64,000 bases of DNA, taken from NCBI GenBank assembly GCA_963771175.1, contig CAVYSY010000032.1, positions 32,001 through 96,000 of the forward strand. The letters are read 5' to 3'. The notes under the pieces are model-generated. The model saw only the letters and a program-made list of their open reading frames with translations. It was not told where the DNA came from and did no database searches. The translations under genes were made by a program, and so were the position numbers. Positions 28,963 through 36,910 of this stretch are shown one piece after another. The first letter of the stretch is position 1; the number at the start of each line of letters is the position of its first letter. Source of the stretch: an uncultured delta proteobacterium. Its GTDB lineage: Bacteria; Myxococcota; Myxococcia; Myxococcales; Myxococcaceae.

Positions 28963-29222
28963 GAGGGGACTCCGTGAGGCGGCCGGCCACCGGCCTCGGG
29001 GGTTCGCGTCGGTTCGACGCTGGGGCCCGGGAAATTGCTCAAAGAATGTCCCGAAGCACCTGGGACCCGAGGGCCGTGATGGATTCTGAACGCCCGGGAT
29101 TCCGCACTGTCGTTCACCCTGAATTCATTCTGCTCAATTTCGCTCTCCGTGAAGCGCTATGCTCGAAGCGCCTCCGGGCCAGCGTCGTTGGCCCGAGTCC
29201 TCGCCCAGGGCAGGAGTTCACT

Positions 29223-30638
29223 ATGACGCATCGATTCGCATGGCTGACGCGGTGCTTGACGTTCTTGTCCTTCTTCCTCGCGGGCTCCGCTGGAGCCGCC
29301 GGGTGGAACTACGGCCTCTACCAGAGCCTCTGGCACAACGAGTGCCAGACCGGGAACACGGAGGTCCTCGCCCAGACCCAGGCCGGCTACTTCGGAGACA
29401 GCGCGACTCCCAAGGTCGGCGAGGTCTATTACGTCTCGGCGCTCGTCGCGGTGATTGGGAACTCCTGCGTTGGAGGCGCCCAGGTGATTCCGGAGGTCCA
29501 GCTCCCACCGCAGACGGTTCTGGCCATCAGCAGTCAATACCCGGTGCGGTGCGTGTACACGGACATTCAATCCGGCACGCAGACCGAACTGAGTGCCGCG
29601 GAGTGCCCGCAGACTGCATCCGTAGGCCTCTATGGGCAGTACGCGTTCGTCCAACCCGCGCAGTCGACCTTCCCGGTCCCCTACGGGAAGCGGTTCGAAA
29701 TCTGGGTGCCCGTCCTGTCCAAGACGACGCTGAGCGGCATCTCCACCAATTTCACCGCGGTGCTCCGCATCGCGAGCGGCGTCTCGGGCGATCTGTTCCC
29801 CAAGGTCGGCGTCTTCGTCTACCCGAACCCGCCCACCATCACCTACCCGGTGCCCTCGACCACGAGCCTCGGCAGCAACGCGGCCAGCACCCGGGGCGTC
29901 CTCAACAACCATTACACCTATGGGAATGTGTACGCCGACTTCGGCAAGACCACGTCCTACGAGCTGAGCGGCCACGGTCCCTTCGCCATCGGGGACTACG
30001 ACATGTACCAGGTGAACCTGGACTGGACGAGCCTCACGCCGGGCACGCTCTACCACTGGCGCCTGCGGTTCGTGTCCTCCACCGGGGCGACGACCCTGGG
30101 CGCCGACCAGACGTTCACCACGACCGGGACGCCTCCCGCGGGCCAGTACCAACTGGCGATGTCCGTGACCTCCGGGGGCTCCGTGGACATCTCGCCGAAT
30201 CTTCCCAGCTACCCGGCGGGGACCCAGGTCACCTTCACCGCCCGCCCCGAGCCCGGATTCCGGCTCGGCGGCTGGAAGATCGACGGCGTCGCGGCGGGGA
30301 GCGCAAACCCGCTCGTCCACACCATCACGAAGGAGCACTTCATCGGCGTGACCTTCCAGCAACTCCCGCCCGGAGGGGATGCCGGCACCGGAGCCTCGGA
30401 TGCCGGTACTGGAGCCTCGGATGCCGGCACCGGAGCCTCGGATGCCGGCACCGGAGCCTCGGATGCCGGGACGGGAGTAGCGGATGGTGGAACGAACCCC
30501 GGTCCTGGCGGCGGTACCGGCTCGACCAACCCGGAGGGCGGCGGCTGCTCCGCGGCGGCGTTCGGACCGGGCGCGATCATCGCGCTGGTGGGCCTGCTGC
30601 GTCGCCGTCGCGGGCGCGGTGGGCGAGGACAGAACTGA
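29223..30638 (+). CDS. Secreted surface protein: FN3-like + InlB B-repeat-like domains, DAGTGAS spacer, MYXO-CTERM-like anchor
   Basis: Signal peptide after GGAG; LTPGTLYHWRL FN3 motif; YPAGTQVTFTARPEPGFRLGGW; C-terminus GGGCSAA..hydrophobic..RRRR. Confidence 0.75.
   Translation: MTHRFAWLTRCLTFLSFFLAGSAGAAGWNYGLYQSLWHNECQTGNTEVLAQTQAGYFGDSATPKVGEVYYVSALVAVIGNSCVGGAQVIPEVQLPPQTVLAISSQYPVRCVYTDIQSGTQTELSAAECPQTASVGLYGQYAFVQPAQSTFPVPYGKRFEIWVPVLSKTTLSGISTNFTAVLRIASGVSGDLFPKVGVFVYPNPPTITYPVPSTTSLGSNAASTRGVLNNHYTYGNVYADFGKTTSYELSGHGPFAIGDYDMYQVNLDWTSLTPGTLYHWRLRFVSSTGATTLGADQTFTTTGTPPAGQYQLAMSVTSGGSVDISPNLPSYPAGTQVTFTARPEPGFRLGGWKIDGVAAGSANPLVHTITKEHFIGVTFQQLPPGGDAGTGASDAGTGASDAGTGASDAGTGASDAGTGVADGGTNPGPGGGTGSTNPEGGGCSAAAFGPGAIIALVGLLRRRRGRGGRGQN
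30377..30481 (+). repeat. 21-bp coding tandem repeat, 4 near-perfect + 1 degenerate copy (DAGTGAS)
   Basis: GGATGCCGGCACCGGAGCCTC repeated. Confidence 0.9.
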
Positions 30639-30754: not shown

Positions 30755-31477
30755 ATGCTTTCCACCTTCTCCGTCCTCGCCCTGCTGCTCGCCGCGGATG
30801 GGGGGACCCCGGCCCCGAAGGAGTCCCCCAAGGCGTCCCCGGTCGAGGTCACCGCGCTCGCGGTGGACGTGGACTTCGTCTGCCGCATCCGCTCCACCCA
30901 GAGCCTCATCCTCATCCCGAAGGCCCAGGGGCAGCTTCAAGTGCCCGACAGTTGCCCAGACGCCGGTGCCGACTGGCGCCTCACCGTCGACTGCACCGAC
31001 GAGCGCTGCTCGGGCTACGTCCGCACCAAGGCCGGAGCCATCGCCCTCATCCAGGGCACTCGCAAGCAGCTCGAGGTGAAGCCCATCGCCGAGGAGCACC
31101 CGCCCACGCTGGACCAGGTGCAGGTGAGCATCACCGGCCAGCACACGCTGACGCTGGAGAAGCCCGAGGCCCACCAGCCTCCAACTCAGCTCCTCTTGCA
31201 GCTCCCCAGCGTCACCGGGGTCTACACCCTCGCCTCCTCGGAGCCGACCGACGTGGCCTTCGAGCATCGGGGCAAGCGCCTCGTGCTGCGCGCCCAGCTC
31301 TCCCGGAGCGATGACGGCTCGCTGGTCCACGTCCAGCTCTGGAACGCCCAGCACGAGCCGCTGCTGGACGAGACGCTCATGCTGGATGAGTCCCGCGAGC
31401 TCGACTGCCAGCGCCTGAACAACATCTGCGAGAGCAAGCTGAAGGTGCTGGTGCGGGAGCCCCAGCGCGTCCTCTGA
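30755..31477 (+). CDS. Hypothetical exported protein
   Basis: Signal-like N-terminus; clean 240-aa ORF with paired cysteines. Confidence 0.7.
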   Translation: MLSTFSVLALLLAADGGTPAPKESPKASPVEVTALAVDVDFVCRIRSTQSLILIPKAQGQLQVPDSCPDAGADWRLTVDCTDERCSGYVRTKAGAIALIQGTRKQLEVKPIAEEHPPTLDQVQVSITGQHTLTLEKPEAHQPPTQLLLQLPSVTGVYTLASSEPTDVAFEHRGKRLVLRAQLSRSDDGSLVHVQLWNAQHEPLLDETLMLDESRELDCQRLNNICESKLKVLVREPQRVL

Positions 31478-31533
31478 CTCGACTTTCGCCGCCGGGGTTT
31501 TTCTTTCGTGCCTGCGCCGGCTAGAGCCGCGCC

Positions 31534-32145
31534 CTACATGAAGATCCCAGGCGCCCGCTCCAGCGCCGCGCGCAGCTCCTCGACAGTCGTGTCCATCTTC
31601 TCGGCCACGGCGGGCGCGTGCCACGTTTCCGCGACTGTGCCCTCGGGATTCTTCGCAAGTCCTTCAACGAGGATCCCGACCTGGCCGGGCCACTCACGGC
31701 GGCCCAGCTCCGCCGCGTGCCCGCGTGGGTCCATGATGGTGAAGCACGGCCAGCGCGGCAGGCGAATCGTGCTCATGTCGCAGTTGAAGAAGCGGCAGCC
31801 ATTGAGGCGGGCCTCTGAGAAGTCGCAGTCCTCAATGCCTCCGAGCTTCCGCCTCTCGTCGAGGTCCTCGCGGAACCCGAAGTCGTTTCCGCCGAAGCGC
31901 CCTGTGAAACGGCACCCCTTCAGCTTCATTGGTGCCCACGGCAGCGTCTTGAGCTCGCCCTTCGCCTGGATGGTGCAGTTGATGAGCTGTCCCGACATCA
32001 GGGTCAGCGAGCGCCGGGCCGCGCTGATGATGACGGTGCAGTCGCGCAGCGTGAGGTTGGGACCGAGCCAGTAGAGCGAGCCCTTAACCAGCTCCACCCG
32101 CTCGCCTACGATCTCTCGGTCCTTGAAGTGGATGTTGGGAGTCAC
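31534..32145 (-). CDS. Probable immunity protein of the SitA5-type toxin (beta-helix/pentapeptide-like)
   Basis: Starts 7 bp after the toxin stop; LTLRDCTV..LINCTI..LKGCRF..IEDCDFSEARLNGCRFFNCD repeats; LPRWPCFTI. Confidence 0.7.
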   Translation of the reverse strand: MTPNIHFKDREIVGERVELVKGSLYWLGPNLTLRDCTVIISAARRSLTLMSGQLINCTIQAKGELKTLPWAPMKLKGCRFTGRFGGNDFGFREDLDERRKLGGIEDCDFSEARLNGCRFFNCDMSTIRLPRWPCFTIMDPRGHAAELGRREWPGQVGILVEGLAKNPEGTVAETWHAPAVAEKMDTTVEELRAALERAPGIFM

Positions 32146-32152
32146 GCGGCCC

Positions 32153-33067
32153 TCAGAAGAAGATCATACGGAAGAAGGTGCTCGCCATCCGTCGCCCGTG
32201 CAGCGCGAAGTTCGACTCCGTGCCAGACAGGATTTCATAGTGGTAGCTCTGCCCTCCAGGGCCGGTGATATCGACACCTCGGCTGTTCCAGGAAAGCCCT
32301 GGGAACCGCTCCTTCATTTGTGCCTCCACCCACCGCCCCCTCGCCTGTCGCTCCAGAAGATTAGCGCGGTGCTCCTTACCTGCCTTCCGCATCTTGTCGA
32401 TGGCGAACCCCTCCTCCCGTGAGAGTTCGGCCTGGGACCACCTCGCCGCCACCTCCTTCAAGGCCGCCTGCATTTCGTCGCCAAGCCTGTCCTCCGCCGG
32501 AATGTCCCTGTAGCTCTTGCCGCGTGGGAGGTGCCACCGCTCGCCATTGCTGAGGATGACCTGCTTGTTGCCGCCGCGATGCTGAATGGCCACGGTGCCC
32601 GAGTGCCCTCCACCAACTCCCGCGCTTCCGCTCCTCGCCAGGACGTTGATGGCAACCGGCACCTGCGGGGACGTGAGGACGACCAGGGCGCGGCCCTGCT
32701 CCACCGCCACCTCCACCGCCGCGGCCTCCTCCATGGCCACCGCCACCGAGCCCTCGAGGCCCTGGGCCGCCCATTGCGACTGCACCTGGTTGAACCTCGG
32801 CAGCGAGCGCAGGTGCGCCGCCACCTCGCCGAGCGTCCGCCCGCTGAGGCTCGCCACCGCCAGAATGAGGGCCCGGGCCGCATCCGTCCCAATCACCCGG
32901 CCGAAGGCCTCGCCGGCGTCGCGCAGCTCCTCGAACGTGGTGGCCTCGTGGGCCCGGTGCGCCATGTTGGCCCACCCGTCCATGAGACCCCACATGGCGT
33001 CCACGCCCAGCCAGGCCAGCAGCACCACCGAGAGAGCGGCCGCCACCGCCTTCGTGCTCGGTTCCGG
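32153..33067 (-). pseudogene. SitA5-type polymorphic toxin, 3' half (after the insertion)
   Basis: PEPSTKAVAAALSVVLLAWLGVDAMWGLMDGW..ATTFEELRDAGEAFGRVIG..AAR, which I recognise as the SitA5-like conserved core; C-terminal domain with GRWVE..GVD..YEILSG. Confidence 0.8.
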
Positions 33068-33114
33068 CAAGCCCCCAACGACGCACCCCCTTAAAGACGC
33101 AGCCGTCGAGAGAT

Positions 33115-33543
33115 TTGGTGGTCATCACCCACCCGCTCCATCCGTTCGTGGGTCGTGCATTCCCCGTGCAGCAGCGCCTGCGGTACCTCGGCCGCCCCAG
33201 TGTCGTGCTGCTGTTTCCCGACGGTCGTCTCGCGAAGGTCCCCGAAGACTGGACGGACCTGAGGCCCTGGCCCCCACCGCTCGAGTTCCGGGGGAAATGT
33301 CCGAAGCTGCACCCTGAATCGCTCCGCGAGCTGAGTGCCCTTCTCGATGACTTGAGGCATAGGTCTCAGCTCCATGACCAGGAAGGTAGTGCGTCGGACG
33401 AGAAGCGCCAACGGCCGGTCATCGCCGGGCGCGCTCTACGCCGCACTCCCCGCGGCGGCCCGACACGAGCTGCTGGGCGTGCTGGCCGACGTGCTGCTCA
33501 AGGCCGTCACCAAGGCTCCCGCCGGAGGCGAGGCAAGAGATGA
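33115..33543 (+). CDS. DUF5372-like small protein of the recombinase element
   Basis: VITHPLHPFVGRAF...PDGRLAKVPEDWTDL motif (HPxHP..G..P..WTD); its stop overlaps the recombinase ATG (ATGA). Confidence 0.65.
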   Translation: MVVITHPLHPFVGRAFPVQQRLRYLGRPSVVLLFPDGRLAKVPEDWTDLRPWPPPLEFRGKCPKLHPESLRELSALLDDLRHRSQLHDQEGSASDEKRQRPVIAGRALRRTPRGGPTRAAGRAGRRAAQGRHQGSRRRRGKR

Positions 33544-35910
33544 CCACCAAGATTCGGCCAGAGCACTTGGCCAGACCCGCGCTGGTGTACATCCGCCAGT
33601 CCACCCTGTTGCAGGTCCACGAGAATCGGGAGTCAACCGAGCGCCAGTACGCCCTGGTGGAGCTGGCCAAGAAACTCGGCTGGGACGCCACCCAGGTCGA
33701 GGTCATCGATGAGGACCTGGGGCAGAGCGGTGCCAGTGCTGCCCGGCGCAAGGGCTTCCAGCGGCTGACGGCCGAGGTCAGCCTCGGCAAGGTAGGCGCC
33801 GTCTTGTCGCTGGAGGTGTCACGCCTGGCGCGCTCCTCGTCCGATTGGCATCGGTTGCTGGATTTGTGCGCGCTCTCCGACACGCTCATCATCGACGACG
33901 ATGGCGTCTACGACGCCAACGACTTCAACGACCGGCTGGTGCTGGGCATGAAGGGCACCATGAGTGACGCCGAGCGCCACTCCATGCGCCTGCGCCTGCA
34001 AGGCGGCATCCTGCACAAGGCGAAGAAGGGTGAGCTCGTCTACCCCCCTCCCACCGGCTACGTCTTCGACAACGGTGCGCTCGTCTTCGACCCCGACGAG
34101 CAGGTGCAGAAGGCCATCCGCCTTCTTTTCGAGCGCTTCCGCCTGGAAGGCAGTGTCAGCGGGGCCGTGCGCTACTTCAATCGCCACAAACTGCTCTTCC
34201 CCTCACGACATGCCCACCGGGGCGCTCCGGCGGAAATTCACTGGCACGCGCTGGACGTCCCGCGTGCCGTATCCATCCTGCGCAACCCGGTGTACGCCGG
34301 AGCCTATGCGTGGGGCCGCAATCGCGATCGGCGCGTCCTCGTCGAAGGAGCGGTGCGTCGCAAGCACGAGACGCTCCAGGAGCGTGAACAGTGGCATGCA
34401 TTCCTGCGCGATGCGCACCCCGCGTACATCTCCTGGGAGCAACACCTGGAGAACTTGAAGCGCCTCGAAGACAACGCCATCAAGGGGGCGCATGTGCGTG
34501 GCCGTGGTGCGCCACGCGGAGGTCTGGCGCTGCTCCAGGGGCTGGTGCTGTGCGGCAAGTGTGGCCGGCGGATGCACCCGGTCTACTCCGTCGCCGACGA
34601 CCCCAGCTACCAGTGCACCAAGCGCATGTACGGTGAGGGCAACTGCTGGTCCACTGTCGCACGCCGCATTGACGACAAGATAGTCGAGGCCCTGCTCGCG
34701 GCTTTCGCCCCGCCCGAATTGGACCTGTCGCTGGCGGTCCTCAAGGAGGTGGAACGGCAGGCCGAGGATGTCAACCGCCAGTGGAAGCTGCGCCTGGAGC
34801 GGGTGCGCTACGAGGCCCAGCGCGCCGAGCGCCAGTACAACGCCGTGGAGCCGGAGAATCGCGTGGTGGCCCGCACGCTGGAGTCGCGCTGGAACCAGAC
34901 GCTCGAGGAGCTCGCGCGGGTCGAGCATGAATACGAGCAGGCCAGGAGCACGAGTCCGCTGGAACTCTCGGACAAGGACAAGAAGAAGATACTGGCGCTG
35001 GCGGGCGACCTTCCAGGGCTGTGGAACGCGCCGACCACGACCAACTCGGACAAGAAACGGATACTGCGGCTGCTCATCCAGGAGGTGGTGCTCTCGCCGG
35101 TGGACGTGCCAAAGCGGGCCACCCGCATCCGCATCCTCTGGAAGACGGGAGCCATCACCGAGTTGCAAACGCCTCGGCCCACGTTTTCTGAATCCAGAAG
35201 GACGTCACCCCAGGTCATCGCTGAGATTCGCAAGCTCGCCAGGAAGCATTACTGCGATTCGCAGATAGCAGAGGAACTCAACCGGAGTGGCTTGAAGAGC
35301 GGCCTGCGCCACACCTTCACCCACCGCCTGGTGGCGGGCATTCGCAAGCGACAGGGCATTCGTGCTGGACGAACTGCTGGAGGATTCAGCATCCGGGCGC
35401 CCGAGCGCGACGAGCAGGGGCTCTATTCCATCCGCGGTCTGATCGCGCATTTCGGAGTGACGGCCCCCATGGTCCACTACTGGGTCAACCGCGGCCTGCT
35501 CACCCCCGTGCACAGCCGCACGCCCATGCACAAATGGAACAAGGAGCCCTTCTGGTTCGAGATGACGCCCGAATTGGAGGCGCTCCTGGCCAAGGCGCGC
35601 GACCAGGGCTACGAGCCGGGCAAGCCGCCGCATCGCGCATCCACAATGGCCTTCCGCGCCCGCCGGCTCGTCTGCCTGACGGCCGCTACTCCACGCGCGG
35701 TCTCGTCGAGAAGTACGGAGTAACCTGGGACACCGTGCGGGTACTGGATAAAGAAGGGCATCCTCACGCCCGAGCGCGCTCTACCGAAGGGCGAATTTCT
35801 GCTTCCGGCTGACCCCCAAGGTGGAGCGACACATCCAGGCCGCCCTTGCTCGAAAACGGAGATCGCGCGGTTCCACGCAGCACCACCATCATCACATCCA
35901 TTCCCGCTAA
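33540..35910 (+). CDS. Large serine recombinase (resolvase + recombinase + Zn ribbon + coiled coil + C-terminal HTHs; 3' end frameshifted)
   Basis: YIRQST catalytic Ser, DLGQSG..RKGF, SRLARS, ILRNPVYAG, HPAYISWE, LLQGLVLCGKCGRRM. The ORF track stops at 35723, but a homologous HTH repeat continues in other frames to TAA at 35908-35910. Confidence 0.93.
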
Positions 35911-35918
35911 CACAGGTG

Positions 35919-36653
35919 GGTTCCGGTAACAGCCAGAGCGCCAGGTACAGGCCCGCGGCCCACACCAGCGAAGAGAGCAGCGCCTGCGGGCTGAGCTCGC
36001 GCCCAAGGGCCGCTCGCGTCTCGTCGAGCACTCCTCCGAAGGCCAGGGCGAGCGCCAGGGTGCGCCTGTCGTCGGTGCGCAGGTAGGGCCCATCCGTGAA
36101 GAGTCCCAGGCAGTCGCCGCCGCCGCGTGGCTGACACCACCGGAGGTACTTCTCCTTGAGCGCCGCCTCGGCCTCGGGGACGAGCGGGCCCTTATCGGTG
36201 AGGGGCACCAGCGTGAGGACCCTGTCTCGGTACACCTCGGCGAGCAGCTCCTCCTCGGGCATGGCCTGGAGCAGCCCTTGCGCGGCCTCTTGGGGCGTCC
36301 CCTGCACCTGGTGGTGCTGGAGGAGCTGTGCCACCGCGCGCTGGTACTCCTCCCGCGTGACGGCCACCACCCGCGTTTTCCCCCGCCTCGACGTGGCCCG
36401 CGTACACGACGACCACCGGCTGCAGCTCCCTCGGCGCCGCTCGCGCCTCGCTTTCCGCTGCCTCCTCCCAGCCGCGGCGACCCCCCTCCCCCTGCCTCGC
36501 CGCCGGGCCCTGCGTCGCGCAGGCCGCGTGGAGGAAGAGGACGATGAGCCAGAGGGCGCCGGCCGGTGCCCAGCGTGTCGGGCCCCGCCGCCGCGGCTCG
36601 AGCTGCGTACCGCCGCCCTCCCCCACCCCAGGACTCCGGTACTCCTTCGACAT
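35919..36653 (-). pseudogene. SitA5-type polymorphic toxin lipoprotein, 5' half (frameshift near 36380)
   Basis: Lipobox LWLIVLFLHAAC; YLRWCQPRGGGDCLGL..DRRTLALALAFGGVLDETR..YLALWLLPEP up to the att core. Confidence 0.8.
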
Positions 36654-36910
36654 GGTGCGGCCCTTTCCCCCAGAAGAAACAGCCCTGAAGGATAGGATGC
36701 GGGCTTCCCAACCCTACAGGGGGGGAGGCCCGCACAGGCCCGGAGTCTCAGCTGCCGCTACTGGCGGCCCCTAGAGGCGGCGCCCCCTCGTTGGTCGCCG
36801 GCCAACCGCCTCTGCCGTCAGGGTGCCGAGGTAGGCCTGCACAAGCGTGCTCGATAGGGACGCCGGGCCAGTAAGTGCCCAGGTTCACAGGGATTTGCAG
36901 GCTCACCCGG

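Follow-up and report, generated by a model that had tools for sequence, protein, structure and literature searches.

Coding sequences that are split by a serine recombinase element have been known from spore formers. The skin element interrupts sigK and is removed by a serine recombinase. Other elements, such as Tn4451 with TnpX, Tn5397 with TndX and SCCmec with Ccr, are moved by large serine recombinases alone, are excised as circles and leave no target duplication. In myxobacteria, sets of SitA toxins and their immunity proteins are thought to define kin. The SPβ element with its SprA-SprB pair interrupts spsM (PMC4191935, PMC5499854), and the gin element with GirC-GirX, which holds 31 genes, interrupts gerE with a 9-bp overlap (PMC5595907). 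The skin, SPβ and gin elements are large; each has a single locus, within a sporulation gene present in one copy, and leaves it in a terminal cell. SPβ is a prophage. Here we describe an element of 2,851 bp that splits a minus-strand toxin gene of the SitA5 family in an uncultured bacterium of the Myxococcaceae (GCA_963771175.1, contig CAVYSY010000032.1, positions 32,001 to 96,000; this whole stretch of 64,000 nucleotides is called the window, and all positions below count from its first letter). With a probability of roughly 80%, it is a minimal site-specific integrative element that consists of a large serine recombinase gene and a DUF5372 gene, the product of the latter being a probable cofactor, and that belongs to a family behaving as a selfish element.

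The locus resembles skin, SPβ and gin in that a serine recombinase element interrupts a coding sequence, which precise excision, here performed in silico, would rebuild. A short overlap is found at both junctions, 8 bp in this element and 9 bp in gerE, and a second small factor, needed for excision in the skin/SPβ/gin type, is predicted here. Unlike those elements, this one has only two genes in 2.85 kb, is multicopy, patchy and recently copied, uses several targets and resides in a toxin family. By analogy, the mechanism appears to be shared with the gene-intervening elements of spore formers, whereas the biology is not. Tn4451, Tn5397 and SCCmec differ in their targets and bring along cargo such as resistance. 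This element is cargo-free, has a DUF5372 partner and inserts at a coding motif of toxin genes; the recombinase gives weak matches to the CcrA/B/C models. Another comparison is with XisF of heterocyst-forming cyanobacteria, also a large serine recombinase, which removes an element from a gene. The XisF model (NCBIfam NF041201, fdxN element) is the best-scoring named recombinase model (E 1.5e-25), but its score of 90.1 bits is far below the cut-off of 375 bits, so that orthology was rejected and the match is taken as general family likeness.

The main features of the locus are as follows.

31534–32145, minus strand: candidate immunity gene (sitI-like), 203 aa, intact (open reading frame and tblastn).
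32153–33067, minus strand: 3′ piece of sitA5, with the end of the escort domain and a putative C-terminal toxin domain that matches no family (NF050093 profile 182–260, 96.8 bits).
33060–33067, plus strand: left junction core, GGTTCCGG, with the probable crossover dinucleotide GG at 33066–33067.
33068–35918, plus strand: inserted element, 2,851 bp; homology to other copies starts and ends exactly there.
33115–33543, plus strand: DUF5372 gene (PF17342), for a candidate recombination directionality factor; its stop and the start of the recombinase gene overlap.
33540–35723, plus strand: large serine recombinase gene, 727 aa, conserved to about residue 700 (PF00239, PF07508, PF13408).
35919–35926, plus strand: right junction core, read as GGTTCCGG.
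35919–36383, minus strand: 5′ piece of sitA5, escort part, in frame with the junction (NF050093 profile 37–186, 112.8 bits).
36384–36653, minus strand: N-terminal part of sitA5, which codes for a signal of lipoprotein type (...LFLHAAC...) and is put into another frame by a 2-bp gap at about 36383/36384.

An earlier note on this DNA had described the toxin gene as two minus-strand pieces around a plus-strand cassette. Both pieces indeed match SitA5_escort (NCBIfam NF050093), in open reading frames (ORFs) spanning 35609–36370 for the 5′ piece and 32153–33070 for the 3′ piece, and each piece alone scores below the model cut-off of 160 bits. The break falls inside the escort domain, at profile positions 182–186 of 262, and the motif PEP or LLPEP is readable on both sides. 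The escort part of the 5′ piece shares 78–90% DNA identity with intact homologues. The putative lipobox stretch (...LWLIVLFLHAAC...), read by eye from the ORF at 36192–36653, is kept in homologues and is out of frame with the remainder of the gene in the window. The gene shares its SitA5 escort domain with the SitA lipoprotein toxins of outer-membrane exchange (PMC5562445, PMC8546572); its N-terminus is putatively of lipoprotein type, and a candidate immunity gene follows it. For this toxin, delivery through outer-membrane exchange that depends on TraAB is putative. Unlike in known SitA, the toxin end matches no known family: its C-terminal 182 aa gave neither a Pfam match nor a PDB sequence match, and an uninterrupted homologue (L115), searched as a whole protein, has no Pfam match there either. 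The downstream gene was said to be intact, and this held, because its 203-aa ORF gives a single co-linear tblastn match over residues 1–203, at 69–79% identity, in eight of nine homologous loci. It is separated from the toxin stop by 7 bp and is conserved together with the toxin end in the same proportion of loci. Its product is a candidate immunity protein by its position downstream of the toxin gene, and shows only weak, sub-threshold pentapeptide-repeat matches.

The insert lies between the two copies of GGTTCCGG, and the 8-bp repeat reported at both junctions is found there as described. Taken alone, this octamer occurs in the window about as often as chance predicts (5 occurrences against 3.84 expected). 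Its weight comes from its exact placement at both junctions. By the ORF list and Pfam, the insert contains only the DUF5372 ORF and the large serine recombinase ORF; phage, transfer (conjugation) and cargo genes, already said to be missing, were not found by ORF and domain search of the insert.

Unoccupied forms of the same site exist in the genus. A DNA search of its 18 genomes, with the 3′ piece and the downstream ORF as the query, gave numerous matches over the full length, at 80–87%. Among nine homologous loci that were fetched, eight (L115–L122) have contiguous flanks that overlap by exactly 8 bp, and in the ninth (L123) the element occupies this position. L115 encodes an uninterrupted protein of 545 aa, which reads ...LALWLLPEPSTKAVAAAL... 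at the LLPEPSTK junction and scores 214.1 bits against SitA5_escort in one stretch, above the 160-bit cut-off. The prediction that rejoining the pieces gives a continuous protein of about 545 aa was thus borne out for the junction frame, LLPEPSTK, and by this natural homologue, but not for the gene as assembled, in which the signal part is out of frame. Of four metagenome runs from soil or manure, three yielded contigs in which the flanks meet at the core, skipping 2,859–2,860 bp (33059 to 35919, 33062 to 35922), and one metagenome contig of 2,962 bp spans the occupied form with both junctions. These contigs derive from relatives and not from this strain. Therefore, both forms exist, and excision is not demonstrated by them. 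A possible excision scar was considered in a SitA5 paralogue on contig C26, where the profile halves are 17 bp apart, and was rejected as a plain 1-bp insertion in which the motif is IPDV and not LPEP. This insertion shifts the frame of the paralogue (L125, G000:C26:201900-203000) at the target motif of the element, and it looks like the usual assembly error.

The PEP motif of SitA5-like genes is hit within the source genome and outside it. The source genome has three copies of the element (100, 95 and 73% identity), and each is flanked by SitA5_escort fragments that break at about profile positions 182–187. A SitA5 piece at the beginning of contig C11 stops at profile position 184, and a fourth copy was suspected there; it was rejected, as the bases beyond do not match the element end. 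Relatives of the recombinase (E up to 1e-50) are present in 27 of the 201 genomes of the family, the source genome included, among them 11 of the 17 other genomes of the genus, and a scan of named genomes placed close relatives in Archangium, Cystobacter and Corallococcus. The same PEP motif is hit in different SitA5 alleles of at least five other genomes. Target sites were tabulated, as the earlier note had proposed, for 16 copies with a recombinase identity of 70% or more and at least one readable flank. Eight of them are in SitA5 genes (the window copy, C39, C44, L021, L022, L026, L028 and L123); in all of these except C44 and L123, that is in six, both flanks were recognised by a hidden Markov model (HMM) made from intact paralogues of the source genome. 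The remainder are mostly in other lipoprotein genes: four at an F-N-K-P motif of a second lipoprotein family (three in C. fuscus, one in an Archangium metagenome-assembled genome, MAG) and two in a lipoprotein gene with a DUF6310 end. The last two lie elsewhere, one with a DUF4230 flank and the other with no recognised gene. Our own HMMs are narrow (6 and 7 seed sequences) and may miss diverged flanks, so that their misses are not evidence of absence. Wherever strand information is available for a SitA5 insertion, the recombinase is antisense to the toxin gene (7/7).

Some details of the other targets may be added. The F-N-K-P insertions of Cystobacter fuscus Cbf 10 (L054, L055, L056), together with L057, belong to a sister clade with 84–85% recombinase identity; those of C. 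fuscus lie near the 3′ end of three diverged genes for lipoproteins of about 800 aa and are co-directional with the gene. These F-N-K-P lipoproteins gave no Pfam or NCBIfam match, and the label of toxin is not established for them. In genome G080, two identical copies of a 71%-identity relative (L027 and L048) split a lipoprotein gene whose C-terminal part is DUF6310. An IS91-like (Y2_Tnp) transposase gene, which is whole in L036, is split by a DUF5372-recombinase element of 2,683 bp with 49% identity (L029–L031). Beside it is a gene for an IS630-like DDE_3 transposase, so that one mobile element is nested in another.

Recent copying is visible in other genomes. The three copies of C. fuscus Cbf 10 show 100% identity along 2,860 bp, and the two copies of G080 are also 100% identical, while the flanks of these copies are 65–82% identical. 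The two copies of A. gephyra PVMSAZ are 99.93% identical, and their flanks gave no alignment. One suggestion of the earlier note was that the conserved PEP-coding motif of a multicopy toxin family serves as the target of a selfish element. It is supported by the copies in the source genome, by those in other genomes, by identical copies in diverged flanks and by the presence of empty and occupied alleles. At the level of the family, the selfish-element reading is well supported.

Serine recombinases cross over at 2 bp, conservatively and without target duplication. The junction octamers are identical only in the window copy; the sibling copy reads GGCTCGGG and GGTTCCGG, and the octamers of other copies differ at 2–3 positions. 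The direct repeat thus holds for the window copy and not as a general feature of the element, and the differing octamers fit the core of an att site around a 2-bp crossover rather than a target-site duplication. Across targets, the octamer beside the 5′ toxin piece is nearly constant, whereas that beside the 3′ piece varies as natural unoccupied sites do. For this reason, and from a comparison of the junctions of three element clades, the most likely crossover is the terminal GG of the octamer as read on the plus strand. In the sister clades, AA and CA are compatible with this dinucleotide position on the recombinase strand, where the window clade has GG. The junctions of the G080 copies fit a TG/CA crossover dinucleotide. 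We infer that the 8-bp identity in the window reflects an attB (CCG GAA CC) that happens to resemble attP.

The following course of events is proposed. The recombinase would join attP of the element to attB, the stretch coding for the conserved L-P-E-P turn in the escort domain of SitA5. Integration would split the toxin gene and leave the downstream immunity gene intact, and excision by attL x attR recombination would restore the toxin gene exactly, because serine recombination is conservative. The family would use conserved motifs of multicopy, horizontally moving genes as safe landing sites, namely those of SitA5 genes, other lipoprotein genes and the IS91-like transposase gene. As a side effect, cells would be disarmed for one toxin and still be immune to it.

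The two genes of the element are conserved as proteins. In the recombinase, the catalytic domain (PF00239, E 4.9e-21, residues 14–165) is followed by the first DNA-binding domain, DBD1 (Recombinase, PF07508, E 1.1e-13), and the second, DBD2 (Zn_ribbon_recom, PF13408, E 4.9e-08). In an alignment of 15 sequences, Y17, R19, Q20, S21, R95 and R98 are invariant, as are C338, C341, C359 and C369 of the zinc ribbon. Residues of about 400–480 are rich in Arg and Glu and are helix-like, as judged by eye only. IS607-type elements encode a small serine recombinase with an N-terminal helix-turn-helix (HTH) and without DBD1 and DBD2; an IS607-type serine transposase was rejected for this protein, which has the Recombinase and Zn_ribbon_recom domains. 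Its nearest solved relative is the SPβ integrase (E about 1e-21), known together with its directionality factor (PDB 9dxd/9dxh; PMC11722253). Unlike the SPβ integrase, recombinases of the window family have an extra C-terminal pair of HTH-like repeats. Full-length relatives end in these two tandem repeats, with a weak MerR_1 match at residues 629–659, and such repeats are unusual for large serine recombinases. The ratio of nonsynonymous to synonymous substitution rates (dN/dS) is 0.15–0.27 for the recombinase and 0.12–0.30 for codons 1–85 of DUF5372; on these ratios, both genes are under purifying selection. The Arg-rich tail of DUF5372 has a ratio of about 0.9–2.2, without purifying selection.

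DUF5372 is probably the excision (directionality) cofactor. Directionality factors of serine recombinases bind the zinc ribbon and the base of the coiled coil. The DUF5372 protein matches PF17342 at residues 4–80 (E 7.8e-09) and matches no PDB chain (0 at E up to 1). Its predicted complex with the recombinase reaches an ipSAE of 0.64, against 0.00 for the best of three controls; 116 of 157 solved complexes attain this mark, as do 2 of 215 mismatched pairs. The prediction runs agree in at least 59% of contacts, the predicted local distance difference test (pLDDT) of the partner is at least 60, and the predicted interface comprises recombinase residues 337–404 and 474–540, which are the zinc-ribbon domain and the coiled-coil base. 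The model supports binding and does not show it. Among 68 more distant loci of several phyla (Acidobacteriota, Actinomycetota, Alphaproteobacteria and others), 28 also have a DUF5372-like ORF immediately before the recombinase gene. Such pairs (L059–L078, L093, L094) were seen in Acidobacteriota, Solirubrobacterales, Microvirga and other MAG contigs, and many of these contigs are only 2–3 kb long, as expected for repeated elements.

Several observations weigh against the reading as a mobile integrative element with a toxin target. The complex prediction is a confidence of the model, not a measurement. The toxicity of the window allele is ascribed by family membership, because its C-terminal domain matches no family. 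Specificity is not absolute, since two of eight copies with at least 93% identity are outside SitA5 genes, and occupancy is low, with at least 12 PEP sites unoccupied among the SitA5 paralogues of the source genome. The two off-target candidates are L050 (Archangium MAG) and L052 (the second copy of A. gephyra PVMSAZ); one adjoins a piece of a DUF4230 gene that starts with PEP, and the other is at a site without a recognised gene. Neither excision product, circle junction nor expression was seen, with no search of public collections aimed at the circle junction; none of the public sequencing runs holds the strain, and the best run has 0.28 of the sampled words. In addition, the window copy looks damaged. 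Its recombinase has 727 aa where full-length relatives have 779–789 aa, as three private indels put the last ~90 residues out of frame in comparison with eight other copies. Next to the right-end core, 10 bp are missing that are present in all eight other aligned copies and absent only here. The possible frameshift that had been pointed out near 36380 in the 5′ toxin half was found in the assembly as a private 2-bp gap at about 36383/36384 in comparison with four intact homologues. The features concerned within the element are the following.

35613–35900, plus strand: out-of-frame remnant of the recombinase C-terminus (second HTH-like repeat), with indels at about 35613–35635, 35739 and 35793.
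35918/35919, plus strand: loss of 10 bp from the right arm of the element, where the sibling copy reads TCCTGATGCA; the inferred crossover is 6 bp away.

How far these defects are real depends on the quality of the assembly, of which the completeness figure is 81.66%. In the same assembly, rpoB is in three frames and rpoC in four pieces (L110, G000:C25:92400-100900), and 16 indel events were counted in the rpoBC stretch against two genus-mates, most of them of 1 bp and private to the source genome. Because the assembly is error-prone to this degree, small indels anywhere in it are unsafe and single-base frameshifts may be errors. The extra bases at 35739 and 35793 are absent from the contigs of all four metagenome runs, and metagenome relatives from two runs carry 2 more letters at about 36383/36384. 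Both of the 95–100% copies in the source genome are frameshifted in the linker before the second HTH-like repeat. The 10-bp loss is less likely to be an assembly error than the single-base frameshifts, and, because these 10 bp are missing beside the right-end core, the window copy may be non-excisable.

It may be, at roughly even odds, that the window copy is immobilised and its toxin allele dead. The further step, that the whole locus is a fossil element in a pseudogenised toxin, inactive in cis and with only the immunity gene still useful, is a serious possibility, though judged to be somewhat short of an even chance. The private 10-bp loss so near the crossover, the indels in the recombinase tail (two of the three missing from the metagenome runs) and the 2-bp gap in the toxin would all follow from such decay, and the window copy is only 96% identical to its sibling, where copies in other genomes are 99.9–100% identical to each other. 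However, the state of rpoB, rpoC and the rpoBC stretch means that the small indels may be errors, the recombinase core (residues 1–700) and the DUF5372 domain are intact, and two other copies in the source genome could act in trans. The misassembly of a recombinase cassette into a toxin gene might be thought of in an assembly with so many small errors, but it is scarcely credible, for the same structure and junctions are found in independent genomes of named strains and the 2,962-bp metagenome contig spans both junctions.

Two other explanations would give the insertion a use for the host. The element could be a domesticated switch, by which the host keeps the toxin off and re-arms itself through regulated excision upon starvation, development or contact. 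Excision would be exact, the immunity gene is intact, a recombinase and a likely directionality factor are encoded, the best NCBIfam match of the recombinase is XisF (at the low score given above), and myxobacteria have terminal cell fates. Known developmental elements, however, sit at one fixed locus, whereas here three copies are found in the source genome, in different paralogues, several gene families are used as targets, and eight of the nine homologous loci are empty; the element has been copied recently, the right arm of the window copy is damaged, and no sigma-70-like promoter was found in 31400–36900 by a promoter scan that is weak for this organism. A regulated switch, the reversible on/off control that the earlier note had offered as its other reading, is formally possible and unsupported, as neither regulation nor excision is shown in the data analysed, and we regard it as improbable. 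Even less probable is that the recombinase, rather than moving the element, acts mainly on pairs of copies at different sitA5 loci, so that toxin-immunity ends are exchanged or the chromosome is rearranged. In the source genome, the three copies do share one target motif, and the toxin ends downstream of it differ; SitA5 toxin domains are reported to be modular (PMC8546572). Against this, the break is inside the escort domain (profile positions 182–186 of 262) and not at the boundary of escort and toxin, no hybrid junctions were seen, and identical copies between diverged flanks fit plain insertion.

A further ORF and the surroundings of the element may be mentioned here.

33374–33712, plus strand: ORF of 112 aa in an alternative frame, overlapping the DUF5372 tail and the recombinase start.

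This ORF has no Pfam match, and its helix-like motif is conserved in the 49%-identity clade, where it can be read in the corresponding frame. Ratios of nonsynonymous to synonymous differences (pN/pS) for 33374–33538 do not decide the coding frame, and the ORF may represent either an additional small gene, the third, or a C-terminus moved out of frame. Terminator-like sites in 31400–36900 are no commoner than chance. The neighbours FxsA, DUF1499 and a secreted repeat protein are ordinary chromosomal genes; at 28974–30638 on the plus strand, an ORF of 554 aa has an InlB B-repeat-like domain and a tandem DAGTGAS repeat near its C-terminus.

No paper with the term DUF5372 came up in full-text searches. 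Among the papers listed for SitA and myxobacteria, none contained the term 'serine recombinase' in full text, in a search whose cover did not extend to the PNAS 2019 paper that defines six SitA families, and neither 'recombinase' nor 'interrupted' came up in a term search of two papers on SitA. Among papers in which the terms 'large serine recombinase', 'polymorphic toxin' and 'insertion' occur together, none was on this theme as far as titles and abstracts tell.

As a minimal integrative element of a selfish family, the element illustrates a strategy for tiny elements without transfer genes, that of riding on multicopy, horizontally moving genes. A bolder proposal, which is tentative and on present evidence rather doubtful, is that such mini-elements act as heritable, reversible safety catches on kin-discrimination toxins, hopping in and out of the PEP motif, and of equivalent motifs in other lipoprotein toxins, and thereby changing the social 'barcode' without loss of immunity. 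DUF5372 would then be a new, widespread family of directionality factors, and the whole family would be specialised on multicopy mobile genes as landing sites. If this is true, DUF5372 would have its first function, and compact modules of recombinase and cofactor with natural att sites and at least three crossover dinucleotides would be of interest for genome engineering. For students of myxobacterial kin discrimination and of serine integrases, the interest lies in the consequence for the cell: an element that splits sitA5 genes would create lineages that are immune but unarmed and could re-arm them, which would be a route to social change undescribed in the field.

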